Virus record (IMG/VR): IMGVR_UViG_3300033571_012928
Coordinates: 2,586 to 66,585 of that record
Reading direction: 5' to 3' (one strand)
DNA from: a virus
DNA: 64,000 nt
In this document: in pieces, positions 3,839 through 62,943 of the stretch
Layout of the letters: the number at the start of each line of letters is the position of its first letter
How positions within the stretch are numbered: the stretch's first letter is position 1
Made by a program: the position numbers and the translations under genes
Notes under the pieces: model-generated
The model's input: the letters and a program-made list of their open reading frames with translations, nothing else
What the model was told of the DNA's origin: nothing
The model's database searches: none

Positions 3839-4531
3839 ATGAGTTATATAAGAACCGAAAAGATTAATGGCAAGTACAAGTTCGTACATAGTCGTACATG
3901 TGATATATGCGGAAATGTATATGAAACTTTAAAAGGCAATAAAACTACAATACAATCTAAATTTAATGTATGTAGTCAACAATGTCGTAAACAGTACTAT
4001 AAGCAGACTTCATATAAAAGTATAACATGTATGAATTGTAATACAGAATTAATAGTATATAAATCAAATACTAATAAATTCTGTTCGCATACATGTTATA
4101 CTACATATGCACATAATCATCCTAGTGAATTCGGATTAACCGAACGAGCATATAATATGCATGCTAAGATGGATAAAGATGCGGCTACTAAAAAGATGTT
4201 AGCTACAAAAAAATCAAAAGGATTAATATTACATTCATTAACTGATCAAAACTTAGATTGGACGAAATATTGGAAAGTATGTAATTATTATACACGTAAG
4301 ATGCGACGAGTTATGATAGATACATGGGATGGATATGATTATATTGATGGCGAATATATTAAAGACTACTTATCATTACATTATAGTGATAAGCAATACC
4401 CGACATTAGATCATATTAAGCCTAGAAGTATATGTTTTAAAGAGGGCATGACAGTTTTAGAATGTTGCGACATAACAAACTTAGCATGGACTAAACGAAT
4501 AAATAATAGTAAAAAGTATAATAAATTCTAG
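3839..4531 (+). CDS. HNH homing endonuclease with Cys-rich zinc-finger region
   Basis: C-terminal LDHIKP...NLAWTKRINNSK is an HNH motif; several CxxC pairs. Confidence 0.65.
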   Translation: MSYIRTEKINGKYKFVHSRTCDICGNVYETLKGNKTTIQSKFNVCSQQCRKQYYKQTSYKSITCMNCNTELIVYKSNTNKFCSHTCYTTYAHNHPSEFGLTERAYNMHAKMDKDAATKKMLATKKSKGLILHSLTDQNLDWTKYWKVCNYYTRKMRRVMIDTWDGYDYIDGEYIKDYLSLHYSDKQYPTLDHIKPRSICFKEGMTVLECCDITNLAWTKRINNSKKYNKF

Positions 4532-4946: not shown

Positions 4947-5342
4947 ATGAATTTATTATCAACACACCCAGTTAAAAAATTAGATTTAGGATTCCACGGT
5001 AATTTATTCGGAGGTAAATTACTTTCATGGGTAGACGCTGCGGTATCAGCTTATGCAATGGAAAAGTGCAGAACACAAAATATGATTACTGTAGCAATCG
5101 ACGAATGTGTGTTTAAGAAGCCAGCTAAAGAAAAAAACTTAGTTAAAATCTACGCAGAAATGACTAAGGTAGGTAATACATCAGCTACCTTTAAAGTAGA
5201 GGCAAGAGCATATAATGTATTTAGAGGAGATGAAGTTCTTTTGTTAGCTACGAACATGACATTTGTTAGAGTAGATGATGAAGGAGTTCCTATTTCAATT
5301 TCACAATCAGTTAAAGATCAGTTTAACAAACCAAAAAAATAA
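4947..5342 (+). CDS. hotdog-fold acyl-CoA thioesterase-like protein
   Basis: LDLGFHGNLFGGKLLSWVDAAVSAYAM...TFKVEA pattern typical of 4HBT/YbgC hotdog thioesterases. Confidence 0.6.
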   Translation: MNLLSTHPVKKLDLGFHGNLFGGKLLSWVDAAVSAYAMEKCRTQNMITVAIDECVFKKPAKEKNLVKIYAEMTKVGNTSATFKVEARAYNVFRGDEVLLLATNMTFVRVDDEGVPISISQSVKDQFNKPKK

Positions 5343-6038: not shown

Positions 6039-6077
6039 TTTGGAATTCTGAAAAATAGATCTTATATTAATAGTATG
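6039..6077 (+). promoter_or_regulatory. class-A promoter-like element
   Basis: TTTGGAATTCTGAAAAATAGATCTTATATTAATAGT immediately upstream of the folE-like start. Confidence 0.4.
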
Positions 6078-6716
6078 AAAGAATTGCTTAAGTATGCAAA
6101 TTGGTCTATTCCTAGATCAGACGAAGAGAAAAAGCACATGATTGAAAATGCTGCTTTACACTATGGTAACTACATGACAGCGTTAGGTATTGATTGGGAG
6201 AATGATCCTAATTCATCTGATACTCCGATGCGTGTAGCAAAAGCATTTGTAAATGATTTAGCACAAGGATGTTATACAGATGCTCCTAAAATTACAGCAT
6301 TTGATAACTTAGATGGGTATGACGGTATTGTATTTCAAGGTAATATCGATGTTAAGTCGTTTTGCAGTCATCATCATTTGCCGTTTGTAGGACATGCACA
6401 TGTAGCTTATATTCCATCTAAAGAAGGCAAAGTAATAGGATTGTCAAAATTAAATAGAATTGTAGAATACTTTGCTCGTAGACCTCAAGTGCAAGAAAAT
6501 TTGACTATGCAAATTCATGATTACATTAATAGTGTATGTGAGGGTAATGCAGGTGTAGCAGTAATGGTTGAGGCTAATCATATGTGTGCCTGTGTAAGAG
6601 GAGTTCGTCATGATTCAACAATGATGACATCTAAAATGTCAGGTGCGTTTAAAGAAGATGGAAATGCTCGTTCAGAGTTCTATAAGTTTGTAGAAAAATT
6701 AGATAGAAACAAATAA
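6075..6716 (+). CDS. folE: GTP cyclohydrolase I
   Basis: [18 protein letters not shown] and ...MCACVRG... are diagnostic FolE Zn-binding and active-site segments. Confidence 0.9.
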
Positions 6717-7463: not shown

Positions 7464-8497
7464 GCACAATCTATATAGTAGAACTAGAACCAATTGAAAG
7501 TAGATATACTGGAGAATGGAAGACACATGTACCTCAGATTATCAAAGAAGAAATTACAAAAAGAAACTTAGACACTAAACTAGTAGTAATTTCAGGTACG
7601 AATAAAATACCTAAAGCAACTACCCCAGGTGCATTTATTAACTTTGGTGGTACTAACATGTATAAGTCATCTCAGGCAATGGCAATAGCTGAGATGTTTA
7701 CATTAGGTAAAATTCAGCCCGGAGATAAGTTTTTGTATACTGATGCATGGAATCCTACAATTCTTCAAATCAAGTATATGTCTCAATTATTACAAATTCC
7801 AGTTGAGATACATGGTTTATGGCATGCAGGTAGTTACGATCCAAATGACTTTTTAGGTAGATTAATGTCTGATGAAAAATGGGTTAAATCAACCGAAGAA
7901 GCATTAGCATATGCTATTGATAAGAACTATTTCGCAACTAGTTATCATTGGAATATATTTCCTCACGTAGCTCCAGAGCAAACACAAATTGTAGGATGGC
8001 CGATGGAGTATTTAAAAGATACAATCTATGAGGTTGATAAAGTAGAAGACATTATTCTTTTTCCTCATAGAATATCAGTTGAAAAACAACCTGAACTATT
8101 CAGAGAATTAGCTAAACGTAATCCACAATACAAATGGATTATGTGTCAAGAAGAAAACTTAACTAAAGCTGAGTATCATGATTTGTTGAGTAGAGCAAAA
8201 ATAGTATTCTCAGCTAATCTTCAAGAAACATTAGGTATATCATGTTATGAAGGAGCATTAGCAGGTGCGTTGCCATTAGTGCCAGATAGATTAAGTTATT
8301 CTGAAATGTATACAGATGCATTTATGTATCCAGATAGTGCTACGATCGAAGAAATTGAAAGTATAATTCATAATATGATGTCGACATATGCAACATATCA
8401 TAAGTATGCATTACCGACCCTGTTAAAAAAATTAGATCCGTTTTTCTCAAGTCAAGAATTAGTTAACAATTTATTAGAAAATGAAAATACTTTTTGA
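7460..8497 (+). CDS. putative GT-B-fold glycosyltransferase, paralog A
   Basis: C-terminal EGALAGALPLVPD resembles the GT1 Ex7E / G-x-P motif; clear paralogy with the ORF at 12316 (WNPTILQIKY...HGLWH vs WTTNIPQIKS...YGFWH). Confidence 0.5.
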   Translation: MSTIYIVELEPIESRYTGEWKTHVPQIIKEEITKRNLDTKLVVISGTNKIPKATTPGAFINFGGTNMYKSSQAMAIAEMFTLGKIQPGDKFLYTDAWNPTILQIKYMSQLLQIPVEIHGLWHAGSYDPNDFLGRLMSDEKWVKSTEEALAYAIDKNYFATSYHWNIFPHVAPEQTQIVGWPMEYLKDTIYEVDKVEDIILFPHRISVEKQPELFRELAKRNPQYKWIMCQEENLTKAEYHDLLSRAKIVFSANLQETLGISCYEGALAGALPLVPDRLSYSEMYTDAFMYPDSATIEEIESIIHNMMSTYATYHKYALPTLLKKLDPFFSSQELVNNLLENENTF

Positions 8498-13335: not shown

Positions 13336-14544
13336 ATGCAAAATACAGATCCAAAAAAAGTAGTTTACTTTCCATCTTTATCTTCAGGTGCATTTGCAAC
13401 TGTACTAAAGAAAGATGCAGAAATTAAACCAGGCGTACCATATCGCTTTTGGGATAAACGAACTCCTGAAGAATGGCGATATCCTTATTTTCTAGTGACA
13501 GCAGGTCATTACTACAAGAAACCTACATTGAGAGCCGATTGGGGTTTAGATAAAGATTGTTTAGTATTTGGTGATTCCGGAGGATTCCAAATTGCGACAG
13601 GTGCGTTGAAATGGGATGTAGCTTTAAGAGATACTATTTTTCAATGGTTAGAAAACAATTCAGATTTAGCAGCTAACTTAGATATTCCACCTCGTACTAA
13701 GTATGAGGGTAGATTTCAAGAAGCATTAGATTTTAGTATTGATAACTTTAAATACTTTGAAAAGAATCAATCTGGTAAGACTAGATTCTTGAATGTATCT
13801 CAAGGTTCAAATCCTAAAGAAAGAGAAGTATGGTTTAATGCCGTTAAAGATTTTGAATTTCAAGGTTGGTCATTAGGAGGTAGTCGTCGTATTGTTGACT
13901 TGTTACATGGCATTGCATTAATGTTAGAACACAAAGAGTTTGATAAATTGCATAATACATGGGTACACGTATTAGGAGCATCTAAAGTATCTGACTTTTT
14001 AGTATATGGTAAACTTCAACAAATGTTTAATCAGTATACTGATAATAGAATTACATTGTCAACTGATAGTTCATCTCCAGGTCAGTATCCTATCTTTGGA
14101 CAAATGGTTTGGGATGCAGATTGGAGAAATCATATTTTTAACATGTTGTATTTTCCAAAAGATGGTACAGTTAAATATCCTTCAGAAGGATTAGTTCCTT
14201 CTTTGTTGAAACATCCAGGTTGGGATACATTAACATGGCCAATGATTGAAGAATTCAAGGGAGATGCAGCATTTAGAATGACATATCATAATTTGTATAT
14301 GTATGCTTATACATGTGCGAAGGCTGAAGAAATTGTTACAATGGCACCTCCGAAGACAATTGAAGATATTGTATCAAAAGATATGGCAGTTGTATTGCAG
14401 TCAATAGAAGATATGTTTCATTCTTCAAATCCAATGCAGGTATTTGAAAGTTACAGAGCATTCTATGTAAAGATTGGTGGTGATAATTTACCTATTTATT
14501 CAATTGAAGCAGCTGCAGAATTTTTTGACTTTTCAACTACATAA
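13336..14544 (+). CDS. tRNA-guanine transglycosylase family protein, DpdA-like
   Basis: DCLVFGDSGGFQIATGAL matches the TGT catalytic LTDSGGFQV segment; 402 aa. Confidence 0.6.
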   Translation: MQNTDPKKVVYFPSLSSGAFATVLKKDAEIKPGVPYRFWDKRTPEEWRYPYFLVTAGHYYKKPTLRADWGLDKDCLVFGDSGGFQIATGALKWDVALRDTIFQWLENNSDLAANLDIPPRTKYEGRFQEALDFSIDNFKYFEKNQSGKTRFLNVSQGSNPKEREVWFNAVKDFEFQGWSLGGSRRIVDLLHGIALMLEHKEFDKLHNTWVHVLGASKVSDFLVYGKLQQMFNQYTDNRITLSTDSSSPGQYPIFGQMVWDADWRNHIFNMLYFPKDGTVKYPSEGLVPSLLKHPGWDTLTWPMIEEFKGDAAFRMTYHNLYMYAYTCAKAEEIVTMAPPKTIEDIVSKDMAVVLQSIEDMFHSSNPMQVFESYRAFYVKIGGDNLPIYSIEAAAEFFDFSTT

Positions 14545-46492: not shown

Positions 46493-47989
46493 ATGAATCC
46501 ACTTTTATTAACAGATGGTTACAAAACGGGTCACCATCAGCAGTACCCAAAAGGAACTACATTAGTTTATTCTAATTTTACTCCTCGTTCAAATAAATAC
46601 GCTCCTAAAGGTTGCAATGAAGTAGTTGTATTTGGTACACAAATGGTTATGCAACAAATTCACGAAGCATTTAAAAAAGATTTCTTTAGTAGACCTAAAG
46701 AAGAAGTATGCGGAGAAATGAAACGTGAGTTGTCAATGTATTTAGGTACTGACTATGATGTAAGTCATTTTGAAGCATTACATGATTTAGGTTGTTTACC
46801 TATTAGTGTTAAAGCATTGCCCGAAGGTAGTAAGGCTCCTATTAAAGTTCCTGTATTAACTATTCATAACACTCATCCGGACTTTTATTGGGTTACGAAT
46901 TATTTAGAGACTATCTTGTCTAACTTGTTATGGAAGCCAATGACGTCAGCAACTATTGCTCATCAGTATCGTAAAGTATTGACCAAGTGGATGGAAAAGA
47001 CCGACAAAGAAAGAGCATGGTTTATTGATTGGCAGGGTCATGACTTTTCAATGAGAGGAATGGATTCTGCGGAAGCAACTATTGCATCTGGTTTAGGTCA
47101 CTTAACTTCATTTTTAGGATCAGATTCATTACCAACTATTTATGGTGCTAGAAAGTATTACGATGCTGAAGGAATGGTTTGTGGCTCTGTAAATGCTACC
47201 GAGCATAGTGTAATGTGTGCTGGCGGTAAGGAAGATGAAGTTGACACATTCCGTAGATTGTTAGAAACTTATCCAACAGGTATTTTATCAGTTGTATCTG
47301 ATACTTGGGACTTGTGGAAAGTATGTACCGAGCATGTAGTTACTTTGAAAGAAGAAATTATAGCTCGCGATGGTAAGTTGGTTATTCGTCCTGATAGCGG
47401 TGATCCGGCTGATATTTTATGTGGCTTAAACACAGCAAGCTCAATGTGGACAAAGGATATCACAATGAAACCTGAGTGGAAGGGTGTTATTGAATTACTT
47501 TGGGATGTATTTGGTGGGACAGTAAACGAACAAGGTTATAAAGTTCTTGATAGTCACATTGGAGCAATCTACGGTGATTCAATTACCATTGATAGAGCAG
47601 ATGAAATTTGTAGACGTTTAGAGGCTAAAGGGTTTGCTTCAACTAACGTAGTATTAGGTATTGGTTCATTTACTTACCAATACAATACTAGAGATACATT
47701 TGGATTCGCAATGAAGGCTACCTATGTTGAAGTTAATAAGCCTAAGTTTGAAGGCGACTTTAATCCTGAGGGTAGAGAGATTTTCAAAGATCCTATCACC
47801 GATGATGGTACTAAGAAATCAGCAACCGGGTTGTTAGCTGTATTTGAAAATGAAGTAAATGGTACCTATGAACTAGTTGATCATTGCGATTGGAATACAG
47901 AGAACCGCGGTGAATTGAAAGTTATTTATGAGAACGGTAAGTTTGATAATAGAGTAACTTTAGAAGAAATCAGAGAACGTTTAAAATAA
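46493..47989 (+). CDS. nicotinamide phosphoribosyltransferase (NAMPT/NadV)-family protein; candidate Namat
   Basis: N-terminal LLLTDGYKTGHHQQYP matches the NadV TDSYK.THyxQYP motif; 498 aa. Confidence 0.75.
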   Translation: MNPLLLTDGYKTGHHQQYPKGTTLVYSNFTPRSNKYAPKGCNEVVVFGTQMVMQQIHEAFKKDFFSRPKEEVCGEMKRELSMYLGTDYDVSHFEALHDLGCLPISVKALPEGSKAPIKVPVLTIHNTHPDFYWVTNYLETILSNLLWKPMTSATIAHQYRKVLTKWMEKTDKERAWFIDWQGHDFSMRGMDSAEATIASGLGHLTSFLGSDSLPTIYGARKYYDAEGMVCGSVNATEHSVMCAGGKEDEVDTFRRLLETYPTGILSVVSDTWDLWKVCTEHVVTLKEEIIARDGKLVIRPDSGDPADILCGLNTASSMWTKDITMKPEWKGVIELLWDVFGGTVNEQGYKVLDSHIGAIYGDSITIDRADEICRRLEAKGFASTNVVLGIGSFTYQYNTRDTFGFAMKATYVEVNKPKFEGDFNPEGREIFKDPITDDGTKKSATGLLAVFENEVNGTYELVDHCDWNTENRGELKVIYENGKFDNRVTLEEIRERLK

Positions 47990-48485: not shown

Positions 48486-49625
48486 ATGGAAAATCAAAAT
48501 AGTGTATGCTACGTAGCAAGAATAGGTGAAGTTAAACCTATCGAAGGAGCTGATAATATTGAACAAGCATTCGTAGGAGGATGGAGTTGTATTGTCCCAA
48601 AGGGTCAATATAAACAAGGATATTTGGCTGTTATAGCAACTACCGATGCAGTTATTCCTCAAGAATTATCAGATCTAATGAATGTAACCAATTACTTGCG
48701 TAAAGGTCAAAGAGTAAGAACGGTTAAGTTGAGAGGTGTTTATTCAGAATGTTTAATTATTCCTTTTGATAAATTACTTTTACCTAAAACATTCGTAGAT
48801 AATGTTAAAGAAGGTAAGGACATGATGGAAATGTTAGGTATCTACAAATATGAACCACCTGCGGTACAAGTACAATTGGCATCTGGTCGTAAAGTTAAGT
48901 ATCATCAGAATCCTAATTTTGGTATTTACTATAAATTTCCTAATTTGAAAAACGTACCCGGCATGTATTCAAATGAAGATGAAGTAGAAATTACTAGAAA
49001 AATTCATGGTACTAATGCTCGTTATGGTATTGTAAAGAAAAAGTCTTTGTCATTCTGGGATAAAGTTAAAAAGTTTTTGAGATTAGCTGATGAGTTCATT
49101 GAATATGAATATGTATATGGATCCCATAACGTAGAAAAAGGATCTGACTCTCAAGGATTTTATGACACTGATGTATGGAAGACCGTAGCTGAAAAGTATA
49201 ACATAAGAGAAAACTTATGGAACTTATTCAAGTCAGTTAAAGATGTATACAGTATTGAGCAAGGATTTGTAATCTATGGAGAGATCTATGGTCCAGGTAT
49301 TCAAAAGAATTTTGACTATGGTTTAAAAGAAATTGAATACGCAGGATTTGATGTAACCATCGATGGGGAGTACTGTGACTGTAAAAGAAGTTTCATGCTT
49401 CATAACATATTAGGTTTAGATTATGTACCTGTTTTATACTATGGAAACTGGTCTCAAGAAACTCAAGACAAGTATGTATTTAACAATTTCATCGAAGGCA
49501 CTAAAGTTCCTCACGAAGGCATTGTAATTAAGCCAATAGATGGTAATAGACATAAAGTAGCTAAGGTAATCAATCCGGATTATTTAATCTATGGAGAGAA
49601 ACATAACGTAGGAGATTCACATTAA
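48486..49625 (+). CDS. RNA ligase (Rnl2-like nucleotidyltransferase) with N-terminal extra domain
   Basis: KIHGTNARYG is identical to the T4 Rnl2 motif I lysine-adenylylation site (KIHGTN). Confidence 0.65.
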   Translation: MENQNSVCYVARIGEVKPIEGADNIEQAFVGGWSCIVPKGQYKQGYLAVIATTDAVIPQELSDLMNVTNYLRKGQRVRTVKLRGVYSECLIIPFDKLLLPKTFVDNVKEGKDMMEMLGIYKYEPPAVQVQLASGRKVKYHQNPNFGIYYKFPNLKNVPGMYSNEDEVEITRKIHGTNARYGIVKKKSLSFWDKVKKFLRLADEFIEYEYVYGSHNVEKGSDSQGFYDTDVWKTVAEKYNIRENLWNLFKSVKDVYSIEQGFVIYGEIYGPGIQKNFDYGLKEIEYAGFDVTIDGEYCDCKRSFMLHNILGLDYVPVLYYGNWSQETQDKYVFNNFIEGTKVPHEGIVIKPIDGNRHKVAKVINPDYLIYGEKHNVGDSH

Positions 49626-53254: not shown

Positions 53255-53318
53255 AAGTTAACTTTTCGGTTGATCTTTTGAAATAATGATATTATCTTTA
53301 TATCATAATAAGAAAGAT
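53253..53318 (+). promoter_or_regulatory. class-B conserved intergenic promoter element
   Basis: AAAAGTTAACTTTTCGGTTGATCTTTTGAAATAATGATATTATCTTTATATCATAATAAGAAAG. Confidence 0.5.
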
Positions 53319-54044
53319 ATGCCAAGAATTTACAAAGTAGGTGGTTGCGTTAGAGATAGGTTATTAGAGATCGAATCTAAAGACATTGATTTTACCTTCG
53401 TATTAGACAACTTAGACAGAACCGTCGAAGAAGGTTTTGATATTATGACTAATTGGTTAGAACATAAAGAATTTACTATCTTTTTATCTACTCCAGAATG
53501 TTTTACTATTAGAGCTAAGTTTCCAAATGGTCATCAATACGAAGGAATGGTAGCTGATTTTGTATTGGCTCGTAAAGAAGTAGGATATGTACCTGGTACC
53601 AGAAGACCAATTTTAGAATTAGGTACGTTAGAAGATGACTTAAGGCGCAGAGACTTTACCTTAAATGCTTTAGCTGAAGATGAGGACGGAAACATTATTG
53701 ATTTGTTTGGAGGTATTGAAGATTTAAAGCGTGGTTATTTAAGAACACCATTACCATGTACCGATACTTTCAATGACGATCCGCTTCGTATTTTGAGAGC
53801 AATTCGTTTTTGTATTACTAAAGGATTTTGGATTGGACCTGCAATGGATGGAATTATCCAAGACTATGATTATGAAACTAAAATGACTGTAGTATCAATT
53901 GAACGGATCCGAGAAGAATTGTATAAGTGTTTCAAACATGATACTTTAAAGACTCTTAAAACATTACATGAGTATCCAGCTTTGAGAAACTATATTTTCG
54001 AATCAGGTGCATTGTGGTTGAAGCCAACCATGGAAAAAAGTTAA
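53319..54044 (+). CDS. Pol-beta-superfamily nucleotidyltransferase, CCA-adding enzyme / poly(A) polymerase head-domain-like
   Basis: MPRIYKVGGCVRDRLL equals the tRNA-NT GGxVRD motif; start moved from 53286 because the earlier ATG lies inside the promoter repeat. Confidence 0.55.
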   Translation: MPRIYKVGGCVRDRLLEIESKDIDFTFVLDNLDRTVEEGFDIMTNWLEHKEFTIFLSTPECFTIRAKFPNGHQYEGMVADFVLARKEVGYVPGTRRPILELGTLEDDLRRRDFTLNALAEDEDGNIIDLFGGIEDLKRGYLRTPLPCTDTFNDDPLRILRAIRFCITKGFWIGPAMDGIIQDYDYETKMTVVSIERIREELYKCFKHDTLKTLKTLHEYPALRNYIFESGALWLKPTMEKS

Positions 54045-54090
54045 CATTTCGGTTGTTTATATGAAACATTGATATTATCTTTATAGCGTA
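54035..54090 (+). promoter_or_regulatory. class-B conserved intergenic promoter element
   Basis: AAAAAGTTAACATTTCGGTTGTTTATATGAAACATTGATATTATCTTTATAGCGTA. Confidence 0.5.
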
Positions 54091-60173: not shown

Positions 60174-60355
60174 AAAAAATATTCAATTCTAGAACAGTAT
60201 TTATCATGTCATTGATTGTATTACTGTTACATGTAATCAAGTACGTAGCTACGGGATCTGTAGATACTATGAGTTTATCGGTTTGGTCTATTCTAACTAT
60301 AGCATGGGGCGGTATATGGTTCGGTGATGCGTCCGAAAAAGATGAAAAAAGTTAA
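60170..60355 (+). CDS. small membrane protein
   Basis: Two TM helices. Confidence 0.45.
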   Translation: MKKIFNSRTVFIMSLIVLLLHVIKYVATGSVDTMSLSVWSILTIAWGGIWFGDASEKDEKS

Positions 60356-60423
60356 CATTTCGGTTGTTTAATTGAAATAAAGCTATTATCTTTATATCAT
60401 AATAGAAATAAAAAATAAATAAT
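60346..60423 (+). promoter_or_regulatory. class-B conserved intergenic promoter element
   Basis: AAAAAGTTAACATTTCGGTTGTTTAATTGAAATAAAGCTATTATCTTTATATCATAATAGAAATAAAA. Confidence 0.5.
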
Positions 60424-61522: not shown

Positions 61523-61945
61523 ATGACATACGAGTATAATCAGTGGTATTGGAAATTGTACAGATGGTGGAAATGGGATGCTAAGCATATTCATAGAACT
61601 ACCTGGATAGGCATTAAAAATCTTTACAAGTGGTTTCCTATCATCTGGAAAGACAGAGACTGGGATTACTATTACATTTATCAGGTATTAAAGTTCAAAT
61701 TAGAAAAACAAGCTAACCACTTAAACAAATATGGCTATCATGTAAATGCTAGACGAGATGCTGAACTAATCATGACATGTGTTAGATTGATCAATAAGCT
61801 TCAGAACGAAGAGTACTATGAAAGATACTATGACAGTACGCCTATGAGTACTGAACTAATGTATGAATGTCAAGCACAGCACGATAAGGCAAAGCGCTTG
61901 TTGTTTCATATTTTAAGTGAACGTATCGATAGTTGGTGGGATTAA
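61523..61945 (+). CDS. hypothetical Trp-rich protein
   Basis: ORF. Confidence 0.5.
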   Translation: MTYEYNQWYWKLYRWWKWDAKHIHRTTWIGIKNLYKWFPIIWKDRDWDYYYIYQVLKFKLEKQANHLNKYGYHVNARRDAELIMTCVRLINKLQNEEYYERYYDSTPMSTELMYECQAQHDKAKRLLFHILSERIDSWWD

Positions 61946-61998
61946 AAAAAGTTAACATTTCGGTTGTTTATTTGAAATAAAATCATTACCTTTATAAT
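61944..61998 (+). promoter_or_regulatory. class-B conserved intergenic promoter element
   Basis: AAAAAGTTAACATTTCGGTTGTTTATTTGAAATAAAATCATTACCTTTATAAT. Confidence 0.5.
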
Positions 61999-62223
61999 AT
62001 GATAAATGAGTTATTAGAAAAGTTTGATTTGTTAACGGACATTGCTATTGAATTGTATGGTGATGAATGGGTATCCAATTATTCATTCTGGAACAGTCCT
62101 ACGGAAAGAGAAATGAATGAAACCGTATGTAGCTTAGATAATTTAGGTTATGTATGGCCTGATCCAAGTAACGAGCAATTAGATAAAGCAATTGAAATAG
62201 CACGTAAGTTAGATAATTTCTAA
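61999..62223 (+). CDS. hypothetical small protein
   Basis: ORF. Confidence 0.45.
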   Translation: MINELLEKFDLLTDIAIELYGDEWVSNYSFWNSPTEREMNETVCSLDNLGYVWPDPSNEQLDKAIEIARKLDNF

Positions 62224-62361
62224 AAGACAATAGAGAAGTAGTGAAGCTGTAATTATTATCCAGGTGTTCTAGACTCGAAAAAAGGTTTGTAGTAGAGGGC
62301 GTCACACCTCCCATTAAAGATAATAATCAGAAACCTTGAAAGACCCGAAGCTTCTCTTGAT

Positions 62362-62442
62362 AGTCAGGTATTGCGTAATGTGGAAATGGTTATCACATCC
62401 TAAATGGTTGCAATGTTGTGAGTTCGAATCTCACCCTGATTA
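62362..62442 (+). tRNA. tRNA-like gene 1 (atypical; anticodon unresolved)
   Basis: 7-bp acceptor AGTCAGG/CCTGATT with one G.U, T-arm GTGAG-TTCGAAT-CTCAC, discriminator A; D and anticodon arms do not fold canonically by hand. Confidence 0.4.
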
Positions 62443-62523
62443 CCTAGCCTTGATTTGGGGCAAGCGCTCGTCCACGTTGGCGGGCAAGTCAATACTAAAT
62501 CTACACTGATGGAAAGACATCGG

Positions 62524-62599
62524 AGTCAGGAAAAGTTGGCATCGGAACGAGCAGTTGCAAATGTATCACCGAGTGCAGGTTCGAATCCTGTCCTGACTA
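62524..62599 (+). tRNA. tRNA-like gene 2 (76 nt; anticodon unresolved)
   Basis: Perfect acceptor AGTCAGG/CCTGACT, T-arm GCAGG-TTCGAAT-CCTGT, 3-bp D-stem GTT/AAC; anticodon arm non-canonical. Confidence 0.45.
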
Positions 62600-62614
62600 C
62601 AAAAATAATAAGTT

Positions 62615-62761
62615 ATGAAAAGGAAATTGGGATCAATGGAAAAAAGATTGGAATCTGTGTTTAGTAAAATGCATCCAGTTGAAATTTTTTTTACGGCAGT
62701 AACAATTGCACTTGTAATGGCTTTAATCGTATTGGTCTTAGTTATTACATTACTTTTTTAA
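62615..62761 (+). CDS. small membrane protein (48 aa) between tRNA-like genes
   Basis: MKRKLGSMEKRLESVFSKMHPVEIFFTAVTIALVMALIVLVLVITLLF has a C-terminal TM helix. Confidence 0.3.
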   Translation: MKRKLGSMEKRLESVFSKMHPVEIFFTAVTIALVMALIVLVLVITLLF

Positions 62762-62766
62762 AATAT

Positions 62767-62869
62767 AGTCAGGTGGCGGAATTGGTAGACGCATAGGTTG
62801 AAATAGTATTTGCTTTAAAAAGCTACCTAACTCATCAAGGGTGTACAGGTTCAAGTCCTGTCCTGACTA
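62767..62869 (+). tRNA. tRNA-Leu-like type-II tRNA with oversized anticodon region
   Basis: GTGGCGGAATTGGTAGACGC is 20/20 identical to the E. coli tRNA-Leu D-arm; acceptor AGTCAGG/CCTGACT; T-arm ACAGG-TTCAAGT-CCTGT; but 26 nt lie between the putative anticodon-stem halves TAGGT/ACCTA. Confidence 0.6.
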
Positions 62870-62870
62870 C

Positions 62871-62943
62871 AAAAAAAGTTAACATTTTTCTTGTTTATAT
62901 GAAATATTGATATTATCTTTATATCATAATAGAAAATAAGAAT
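62871..62943 (+). promoter_or_regulatory. class-B conserved intergenic promoter element
   Basis: AAAAAGTTAACATTTTTCTTGTTTATATGAAATATTGATATTATCTTTATATCATAATAGAAAATAAG. Confidence 0.5.

Follow-up and report, generated by a model that had tools for sequence, protein, structure and literature searches.

Results

Three tRNA-like units with one acceptor stem

The stretch of viral DNA analysed here, referred to as the window, comprises 64,000 nucleotides of the IMG/VR record IMGVR_UViG_3300033571_012928 and is part of a 175-kb metagenomic scaffold. It belongs to a distant T4-type phage whose DNA polymerase is 40% identical to that of the nearest GenBank phage. The subject of this study is a group of three tRNA-like units on the plus strand: unit 1 at positions 62362–62442 (81 nt), unit 2 at 62524–62599 (76 nt) and unit 3 at 62767–62869 (103 nt). 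The initial annotation had described three co-oriented tRNA-like elements with a single acceptor start, AGTCAGG, and this is confirmed. AGTCAGG opens each unit, and a T arm, the complementary acceptor strand CCTGA(C/T)T and an A close it. The pattern GTTCRANTCNNNNCCTGAYTA is present exactly three times in the 64 kb compared to 0.11 expected occurrences, and three occurrences were reached in none of 100 shuffled sequences. A 7-bp acceptor stem, a discriminator base and a T arm with a GTTCRANYC loop are present in each unit. In unit 1 the 3′ acceptor strand reads CCTGATT instead of CCTGACT, producing a G2-U71 wobble. The T-stem pattern (C/A)AGG ... CCTG(T), originally ascribed to all three, holds for units 2 and 3, which have a CAGG/CCTG stem, and not for unit 1, whose T stem is GTGAG/CTCAC.

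Within this common frame the units are built differently. Unit 1 (62362–62442) consists of the 7-bp acceptor stem, an inner stem (Px), a D-like hairpin with a GG loop, the T arm and a discriminator A, without any anticodon arm. Unit 2 (62524–62599) contains the acceptor stem, an unpaired D-loop-like sequence, AAAAGTTGGCA, a single stem with a 23-nt loop and the T arm. Unit 3 (62767–62869) is of the Leu type: the acceptor stem is followed by a tRNA-Leu D arm, a 5-bp anticodon-like stem closing 26 nt rather than 7, a short variable arm, the T arm and a discriminator A. The noted match of its D arm to E. coli tRNA-Leu holds and extends a little beyond the 20 nt claimed: over 22 nt (nucleotides 5–26), unit 3 agrees without a mismatch with annotated tRNA-Leu genes in all 5,426 E. 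coli genomes. In the following, the constant parts of a unit are called the scaffold and the variable interior, 20–50 nt in the window units, the cargo.

The units do not decode

ARAGORN detected no tRNA anywhere in the 64-kb window and hence none of the standard cloverleaves that had been set beforehand as the outcome speaking against unusual structures. Compared with the Rfam tRNA model (RF00005, gathering threshold 29 bits), unit 3 scored 44.2 bits, which is above the threshold by way of a local-end insertion, while unit 2 (24.1 bits) and unit 1 (18.0 bits) remained below it and matched only in their acceptor and T arms. This is in line with the earlier failure to fold units 1 and 2 by hand into canonical arms. 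Aligned to the full model, unit 3 accommodates 25 nt at six anticodon-loop positions, in agreement with the estimate of about 19 extra nt. No other Rfam family matched the unit region, even at E = 10, and in none of the three units does a 5-bp anticodon stem enclose a 7-nt loop that has U33 and a purine at position 37. Because ARAGORN calls no tRNA here, the unit 3 loop comprises 26 nt, units 1 and 2 lack an anticodon arm and unrelated anticodons are called for similar units elsewhere (see below), decoding by the units is excluded.

Other tRNA-related explanations are not supported either. Permuted tRNAs, one of the first suggestions, do not agree with the normal order of the 5′ and 3′ acceptor strands. 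Decoys for host anticodon nucleases, also proposed initially, would require something to mimic, yet no unit presents a 7-nt anticodon loop and the cargos differ from unit to unit. The units are not transfer-messenger RNA (tmRNA) either: position 3-70 is U-A and not G3-U70, no tmRNA was called in the window and the cargo measures only 20–50 nt. Neither the tmRNA nor the YrlA families of Rfam produced a match in the window.

A large family in uncultured lake phages

The 3′ module of the units, AGGTTCRARTCCTGTCCTGAYTA, was found on at least 120 IMG/VR viral contigs in at least 167 copies, with up to six copies per contig. This first IMG/VR scan was anchored on the exact 3′ 23-mer. The matches listed contain 205 distinct units of 61–191 nt with nearly all cargos being unique. 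A typical unit reads AGTCAGG-TGGCGGAAT(T)GGTAGACGC, followed by a middle part of 8–143 nt (median 50) and by (A)T-ACAGGTTCGAATCCTGT-CCTGACT-A; its 5′ part is usually a tRNA-Leu-type D arm and its 3′ part corresponds to ACAGGTTCGAATCCTGTCCTGACTA. The bases that make tertiary contacts are retained. Among the 205 units the largest cluster of similar cargos has four members, and no shared cargo motif emerged, the commonest 6-mer being present in 16 of the 205 cargos.

Family copies lie mostly inside phage tRNA clusters as defined with ARAGORN and Rfam. ARAGORN labels some of them as tRNAs with unrelated anticodons (Pro, Glu, Ser, Leu, Ile, Cys, Lys, Val, Tyr and undetermined). A structure-based finder applied to all loci yielded 179 canonical tRNAs with diverse acceptor stems and 302 aberrant elements; 185 of the latter carry AGTCAGG and another 21 the wobble variants GGTCAGG, AGTTAGG or AGTCGGG. 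One unit of locus L085 (collected loci are designated by L numbers), starting at oriented position 4958, has an otherwise canonical tRNA body with the anticodon loop CTTATAC and the family acceptor AGTCAGG/CTTGACT, which suggests acceptor-stem swapping between tRNA genes.

The units are members of a large family of non-decoding tRNA look-alikes in uncultured lake phages, and this family is probably derived from class II tRNA-Leu. With the latter (RF00005) it has in common the acceptor stem, U8, the 22-nt identical D arm, A15/U48, the T arm and mostly A73. In contrast to class II tRNA-Leu the family lacks a 7-nt anticodon loop, has 8–143 nt of cargo in place of the anticodon and variable arms, and spans many ARAGORN-assigned amino acids with one acceptor stem. 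A duplicated module that diverged was the closest of the options considered initially, although we are dealing with a widespread family and not a local duplication.

The DNA between 62200 and 62900 had no match in 50,697 GenBank phages, in which the 3′ 32-mer found only generic T-arm matches to ordinary tRNAs. Representative bacterial and archaeal genomes produced 25 module matches, all on contigs of metagenome-assembled genomes (MAGs) and none in an isolate; therefore the module is not a host tRNA. About half of the 25 MAG contigs are binned as freshwater Bacteroidota, a label that hints at the host. Clustering of the open reading frames (ORFs) of 120 loci revealed no protein linked to the units, with no family present in more than 13 loci. 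At permissive thresholds, Rfam searches of the region plus 10–15 loci returned only tRNA, tmRNA and one near-threshold match to freshwater-1. The latter, an orphan Rfam motif, is located at 4124–4186 of L017 (70.1 bits with a threshold of 72) in a tRNA cluster that also contains family units. A published description was found neither by keyword nor by family sequence within an incomplete coverage of the literature, the sequence matches being unrelated KLOTHO primers. The family is apparently undescribed, and no Rfam entry for it was found.

Selection on scaffold and cargo

For unit 1 we recovered 25 distinct homologues that exist in a short (~81 nt) and a long form (~121 nt) with one extra hairpin. 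The proposed structure is 99% paired across these homologues with 10 pairs changed on both sides; none of 500 shuffles reached this value and slid controls were about 40% paired. The inner stem Px includes a perfectly covarying A-U/U-A pair. At times the acceptor stem of this subfamily is swapped completely, to ATATTGG/CCAATAT or GGTGGGG/CCTCACC, and because of these wholesale compensatory swaps it is the pairing of the acceptor, and not only its sequence, that is selected. In the family at large, acceptor variants are likewise G-U wobbles or full compensatory swaps. Scans of the collection with short cargo patterns (14–15 nt) returned mostly chance matches and were filtered for an adjacent T loop.

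Unit 2 has homologues in L111 and L382/L383 with a mean identity of 94% in the alignment. For unit 3 there are three orthologues with 96% identity along the unit, embedded in unrelated flanks that cannot be aligned. The 26-nt loop is invariant among these three orthologues, the window copy differing at one position, and the changes are located in stems, as G-U or compensatory pairs. Fully compensated stems were also observed in other orthologous cargos. Furthermore, the units are encoded on the strand of the canonical tRNAs in 380 of 380 pairs, and none of 41 multi-unit loci has units on both strands. As judged from these comparisons, selection acts on the RNA and not on the DNA, for the scaffold as well as for the cargo.

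Flanking sequences resemble those of genuine tRNA genes

Upstream of the family units, U is present at position −1 in 81% and A at −2 in 74% of the cases, compared to 72% and 58% for canonical phage tRNAs. A C immediately follows the discriminator in 98% of the family units and 100% of the canonical tRNAs, and the next three bases are A/T-A-A in both groups. In these phages C74 is encoded by all 170 genuine tRNA genes (100%), and A/T-A-A stands after it in place of a complete CCA. This flank signature is the best available evidence that the ends of units and canonical tRNAs would be processed in common.

Genetic context of the units

A promoter-like repeat of 35 nt, in fact longer, AAAAAAGTTAACATTTNNNTTGTTTATNTGAAATA, occurs in four copies on the plus strand (54034–54068, 60345–60379, 61945–61979 and 62872–62906) where none is expected by chance. 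It contains TTG...TATAAT-like hexamers and lies in a region of small ORFs. The repeat may act as a promoter and resembles the repeated early-promoter cassettes of T4-type phages. The copy at 61945–61979 is situated upstream of a 74-aa ORF (61999–62223) that precedes the RNA cluster, and the copy at 62872–62906 begins 3 nt past unit 3 at the end of the transcription unit bearing the RNAs. No terminator-like site was detected between 61500 and 63300. The leader between the 74-aa ORF and unit 1 (62225–62361, plus strand) carries a GAAAGAC motif about 20 nt before unit 1. It is 72% similar over 83 nt to the sequence upstream of an L043 unit and 88% similar over 34 nt to that upstream of an L070 tRNA, and its single-sequence fold is no better than that of shuffled sequences (z = −0.19).

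The gap between units 1 and 2 is filled exactly by an 81-nt structured spacer RNA (62443–62523, plus strand). Near-identical copies follow family units in L011, L045 and L382/L383, of which L382/L383 keep the window order of unit, spacer RNA and unit 2. Three pairs in two helices are changed on both sides. The spacer has no Rfam match. A hepatitis delta virus (HDV)-like ('theta') ribozyme was considered and rejected: there is no ribozyme family match, the helices supported by covariation are arranged differently from those of HDV, and no complementary partner is seen by eye for the first 7 nt. The last 18 nt of the spacer (62506–62523, plus strand) form a hairpin with a GAAAGA loop, CTGATGGAAAGACATCGG, that abuts the 5′ end of unit 2. 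Hairpins of this type with covarying stems, of the form (T)GAC(A)-stem-GGAAAGAC-stem, are located 0–9 nt upstream of 14 of 199 units (e.g. in L001, L022, L034, L044, L075 and L088), 2 of 175 canonical tRNAs and in none of the downstream flanks. GAAAGAC is about 18-fold enriched upstream of units with a peak 15–16 nt from the unit start. Units are commonly separated by 70–180 nt, and further conserved RNAs occupy several of these gaps. One such RNA, of about 125 nt, lies downstream of units in L001, L022, L076 and L105 (CTGACACGCACGGCA ... GTGCGTAGGTAAG ... GAAAGA hairpin), and a further spacer type is common to L011, L045, L117 and L131; both are absent from Rfam.

Between units 2 and 3 lies a 48-aa ORF with a hydrophobic C-terminal half (62615–62761, plus strand) that has no Pfam match and for which the fetched loci contain no homologue. 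A 252-aa nucleotidyltransferase of the CCA-adding/poly(A) polymerase family (53286–54044, plus strand; Pfam PolyA_pol, 3.3e-20) is encoded 8.3 kb upstream of the units. It aligns to the first ~220 residues of CCA-adding enzymes of ~400 aa and comprises head and neck only, the body and tail that bind tRNA being absent. Canonical tRNAs are missing from the window and from the 10 kb on either side of it (84 kb). An enzyme and a unit are found within about 10 kb of each other in 2 of 26 homologous enzyme loci, and in one of the unit loci, making this a weak link between the enzyme and the units as partners. A 94-nt candidate 'unit' close to the enzyme lay within coding sequence and proved to be a false positive.

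Discussion

The units of this phage cannot read codons, and their scaffold and their cargo are both under selection. In the reading that we favour, and to which we would give an even chance, they are tRNA-scaffolded small RNAs: excised and stable like a tRNA, unfit for decoding, with the cargo as the specific part. The units would be co-transcribed with their neighbours from the repeated putative phage promoter. The conserved upper half, composed of the 7-bp acceptor, the T arm and usually the tRNA-Leu D arm forming the elbow, would cause the cell to treat them as pre-tRNAs. RNase P would cut at the 5′ A1, after the conserved U(−1). At the 3′ end, trimming at the encoded C74 would be followed by completion of the CCA, for which the truncated CCA-adding-type enzyme of the phage is a possible candidate. 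The expected product is a stable L-shaped RNA whose lower half, a structured cargo peculiar to each unit, could not read codons and would provide specificity by binding a host or phage RNA or protein. The same cuts would also free the structured spacer RNA that fills the gap from unit 1 to unit 2 exactly. Since the cargo is conserved between orthologues, loop sequence included, it probably matters, and this favours a scaffold with cargo over a pure decoy.

A number of observations weigh against this reading. Processing of the ends is deduced from the sequence. The search for cargo targets yielded none, nor did a motif common to the cargos emerge, and cargo complementarity to the same strand of the locus is not in excess over the opposite-strand control. 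Within the window it is at chance level with the exception of the unit 2 loop. This loop might pair with positions 13387–13403 (plus strand), about 50 nt into the mRNA of the ORF at 13336–14544, through 17 contiguous pairs (14 Watson–Crick and 3 G-U). The predicted duplex has a free energy of −26.7 kcal/mol and 1 of 40 shuffled loops did equally well, so that the pairing is borderline. In the main sample, conservation of the 3′ segment is partly built in by the 23-mer anchor; the 5′ half, the set anchored on unit 1 and 29 in-locus units that do not contain the search pattern are independent of it. Finally, a pure scaffold role leaves the dominance of AGUCAGG/CCUGACU across very different phages unexplained, because RNase P and CCA addition need shape and not sequence. 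The prevalence of one acceptor sequence therefore suggests that something else also reads the upper half, and leaves room both for the decoy considered below and for the notion of a private enzyme.

It is useful to compare the units with known systems. The closest classical analogue is species 1 RNA (rnaC) of T4, without sequence homology. Like the units, T4 species 1 and species 2 (rnaD) are small non-decoding RNAs beside the tRNAs of a T4-type phage, and their function is still unknown (PMC9697503). The rnaC transcript has a T arm (CCGGG-TTCGAAT-CCCGG) and an 8-bp acceptor-like stem around a non-tRNA body. Its sequence similarity to the units stops, by eye, at the T loop, and it has a 5′ extension of ~45 nt and no Leu-type D arm. 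Moreover, the T4 RNAs are single copies while the units are multi-copy with a constant scaffold and a variable cargo. Tethering of an RNA to a tRNA-shaped module for excision or stabilization by host enzymes is known from the TMER/vtRNA (tRNA-miRNA-encoded/viral tRNA) transcripts of murine gammaherpesvirus 68, engineered tRNA scaffolds and tRNA-guide RNA arrays. The viral TMERs and the engineered scaffolds resemble the units in mechanism only, with no homology. There, the extra RNA follows the tRNA-like part, whereas in the units it is inside, replacing the anticodon domain; they also depend on eukaryotic RNA polymerase III and tRNase Z, whereas the units belong to a bacterial phage. In tmRNA and YrlA a tRNA-like upper half is likewise joined to a non-tRNA body. 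Unit 2 even has in common with tmRNA a D loop without a D stem, but the units contain no G3-U70, no tag reading frame and no pseudoknots. YrlA RNA differs by ending in a Ro-binding stem and not in an acceptor stem. tRNA-Other of Bacillus cereus, a pseudo-tRNA with a regulatory role, is a tRNA-shaped molecule that does not take part in translation and yet has a cellular effect (PMC3399842). It is encoded by one chromosomal gene and has a near-normal cloverleaf, in contrast to a phage family with variable cargo.

The most serious competitor, possible although on the unlikely side, is that the upper half itself is active. Numerous non-decoding tRNA-Leu mimics would act as a decoy or sink occupying leucyl-tRNA synthetase (LeuRS, with the units being leucylated), EF-Tu or a toxin of a defence system that attacks tRNA acceptor ends by modification or cleavage, and the cargo would merely be stable and unfit for the ribosome. 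Indeed, the upper half is the conserved part across more than 200 units and there are several copies per phage. The canonical body carrying a family acceptor in L085 suggests selection on the acceptor as such. Leu-type units retain the identity set of bacterial LeuRS (U8-A14, A15-U48, G18G19 and mostly A73), which in E. coli tRNA-Leu consists of A73 together with U8-A14, A15-U48, G18-U55 and G19-C56, as summarised in PMC2377443. The anticodon arm is not needed, as deletion of the whole tRNA-Leu anticodon stem-loop lowers LeuRS affinity only 2.5-fold (PMC2377443). Because Leu-type units possess all elements reportedly required by bacterial LeuRS and the enzyme tolerates loss of the anticodon arm, leucylation is plausible for units with A73. 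This includes unit 3 of the window, which has A73 and the complete tertiary set, while its three orthologues have G73. The discriminator also varies in the unbiased set of 29 units (A in 20, G in 6, T in 3), and an A73G change decreases leucylation 143-fold in Aquifex aeolicus. Together with the absence of a Leu-type D arm from units 1 and 2, these features argue against charging as the conserved function. A decoy would also have no need for the conservation of cargo sequences, loops included, among orthologues, and the acceptor of the unit 1 subfamily is replaceable wholesale by compensatory changes. As factors addressed by such mimics we considered bacterial Schlafen tRNases, which cut the anticodon arm and offer no obvious match.

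It is rather improbable that the units serve chiefly as processing punctuation, i.e. as signals for RNase P and 3′ cleavage that cut long transcripts, release spacer RNAs and small mRNAs and create 3′ ends without a terminator. The 70–180 nt gaps do often hold conserved structured RNAs abutting the units to the base, the flank signature is like that of real tRNAs, a GAAAGA hairpin is present 0–9 nt before some units, and unit 3 ends 3 nt before a promoter-like repeat in a region devoid of terminator-like sites. On the other hand, such a role requires neither a conserved cargo nor a conserved acceptor sequence, the genuine tRNAs of the same clusters could fulfil it, and many units are directly followed by ordinary genes. 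Punctuation is compatible with the scaffold-plus-cargo reading and not exclusive of it.

We consider it very unlikely that the units are selfish or decaying DNA without an RNA function, either tRNA-Leu pseudogenes or a repeat with tRNA-derived inverted ends similar to miniature inverted-repeat transposable elements (MITEs). T4-type phages shuffle cassettes flanked by short conserved repeats, and the identical ends and variable interiors of the units, their presence in multiple copies in very different phages without a linked protein (the largest shared cluster covers 13 loci) and the repeated promoter-like element could be read in this way. This is opposed by the strict strand bias (380 to 0), by stem variants that are G-U wobbles or compensatory pairs and as such relevant only in RNA, by the retention of the tertiary-contact bases and by cargos conserved with covariation between phages whose flanks have diverged. 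For MITE-like mobile DNA in particular, insertion in either orientation was not seen, the orientation always being that of the tRNAs.

Least credible of all are interrupted tRNAs that decode after removal of a short intron, for instance by a nuclease and the phage RNA ligase (48486–49625): in spite of this ligase and of the intact 5-bp anticodon-like stem of unit 3 with its ~19 extra nt, no simple excision anywhere in the unit 3 loop produces U33 with purine 37, units 1 and 2 have no anticodon stem, members of just 69–75 nt are too small for an anticodon arm, the additional 8–143 nt have no conserved or common exon-like flanks and match no Rfam intron family, and one acceptor stem for dozens of 'anticodons' is implausible, which also leaves the intron-containing tRNA offered in the initial annotation without support.

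Returning to tRNA-scaffolded small RNAs, a bolder version, which we put forward tentatively and regard as unlikely, is a natural 'tRNA display' maintained in one ecological guild of phages. The constant tRNA-Leu upper half would provide excision, CCA addition and stability, the specific acceptor would perhaps be read by the minimal CCA-adding enzyme of the phage or bar host aminoacylation, and the hundreds of cargos would constitute a repertoire of binders (aptamers, antisense loops, mimics) directed against factors of the host or of rival phages, e.g. defence systems. If true, this would offer a class of function for the long-unexplained T4 species 1 and 2 RNAs.

Stable tRNA-like RNAs of unknown function have been known in T4-type phages for about 50 years, and a family of more than 200 members supplies comparative data and many test cases. 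If the units do combine scaffold and cargo, they would be a naturally occurring equivalent to the tRNA scaffolds employed for RNA expression and a new class of phage effectors. If instead the upper half is active, the family is a lead to a factor of the host or of a defence system that recognises the acceptor stems of tRNAs. In either case ARAGORN already labels many members as tRNAs with arbitrary anticodons, and tRNA counts in viral metagenomes are inflated and distorted accordingly.

Additional observations concern other RNAs in the collected loci and other genes of the window. A second tRNA-like family of 156–176 nt has the acceptor TGTCAGG/CCTGACA-G, and variants of it, and a conserved long cargo (CACCCACTCGTCTCGTGGGCGCTGA ... 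GGGTTGACCACAAAGCCGGCT). Copies are located, in oriented coordinates, at 7997–8152 of L013, 2259–2426 of L042, 585–760 of L061 and 836–992 of L105. In L079 a phage tmRNA (553–939, 68.8 bits) directly adjoins tRNA-like units. The RNA ligase of the window (48486–49625) is ATP-dependent and of the DRB0094 type, and a nicotinamide/nicotinate phosphoribosyltransferase is encoded at 46493–47989. A PTPS/QueD-like gene (1915–2382) and a GTP cyclohydrolase I gene (6075–6716) suggest 7-deazaguanine metabolism.

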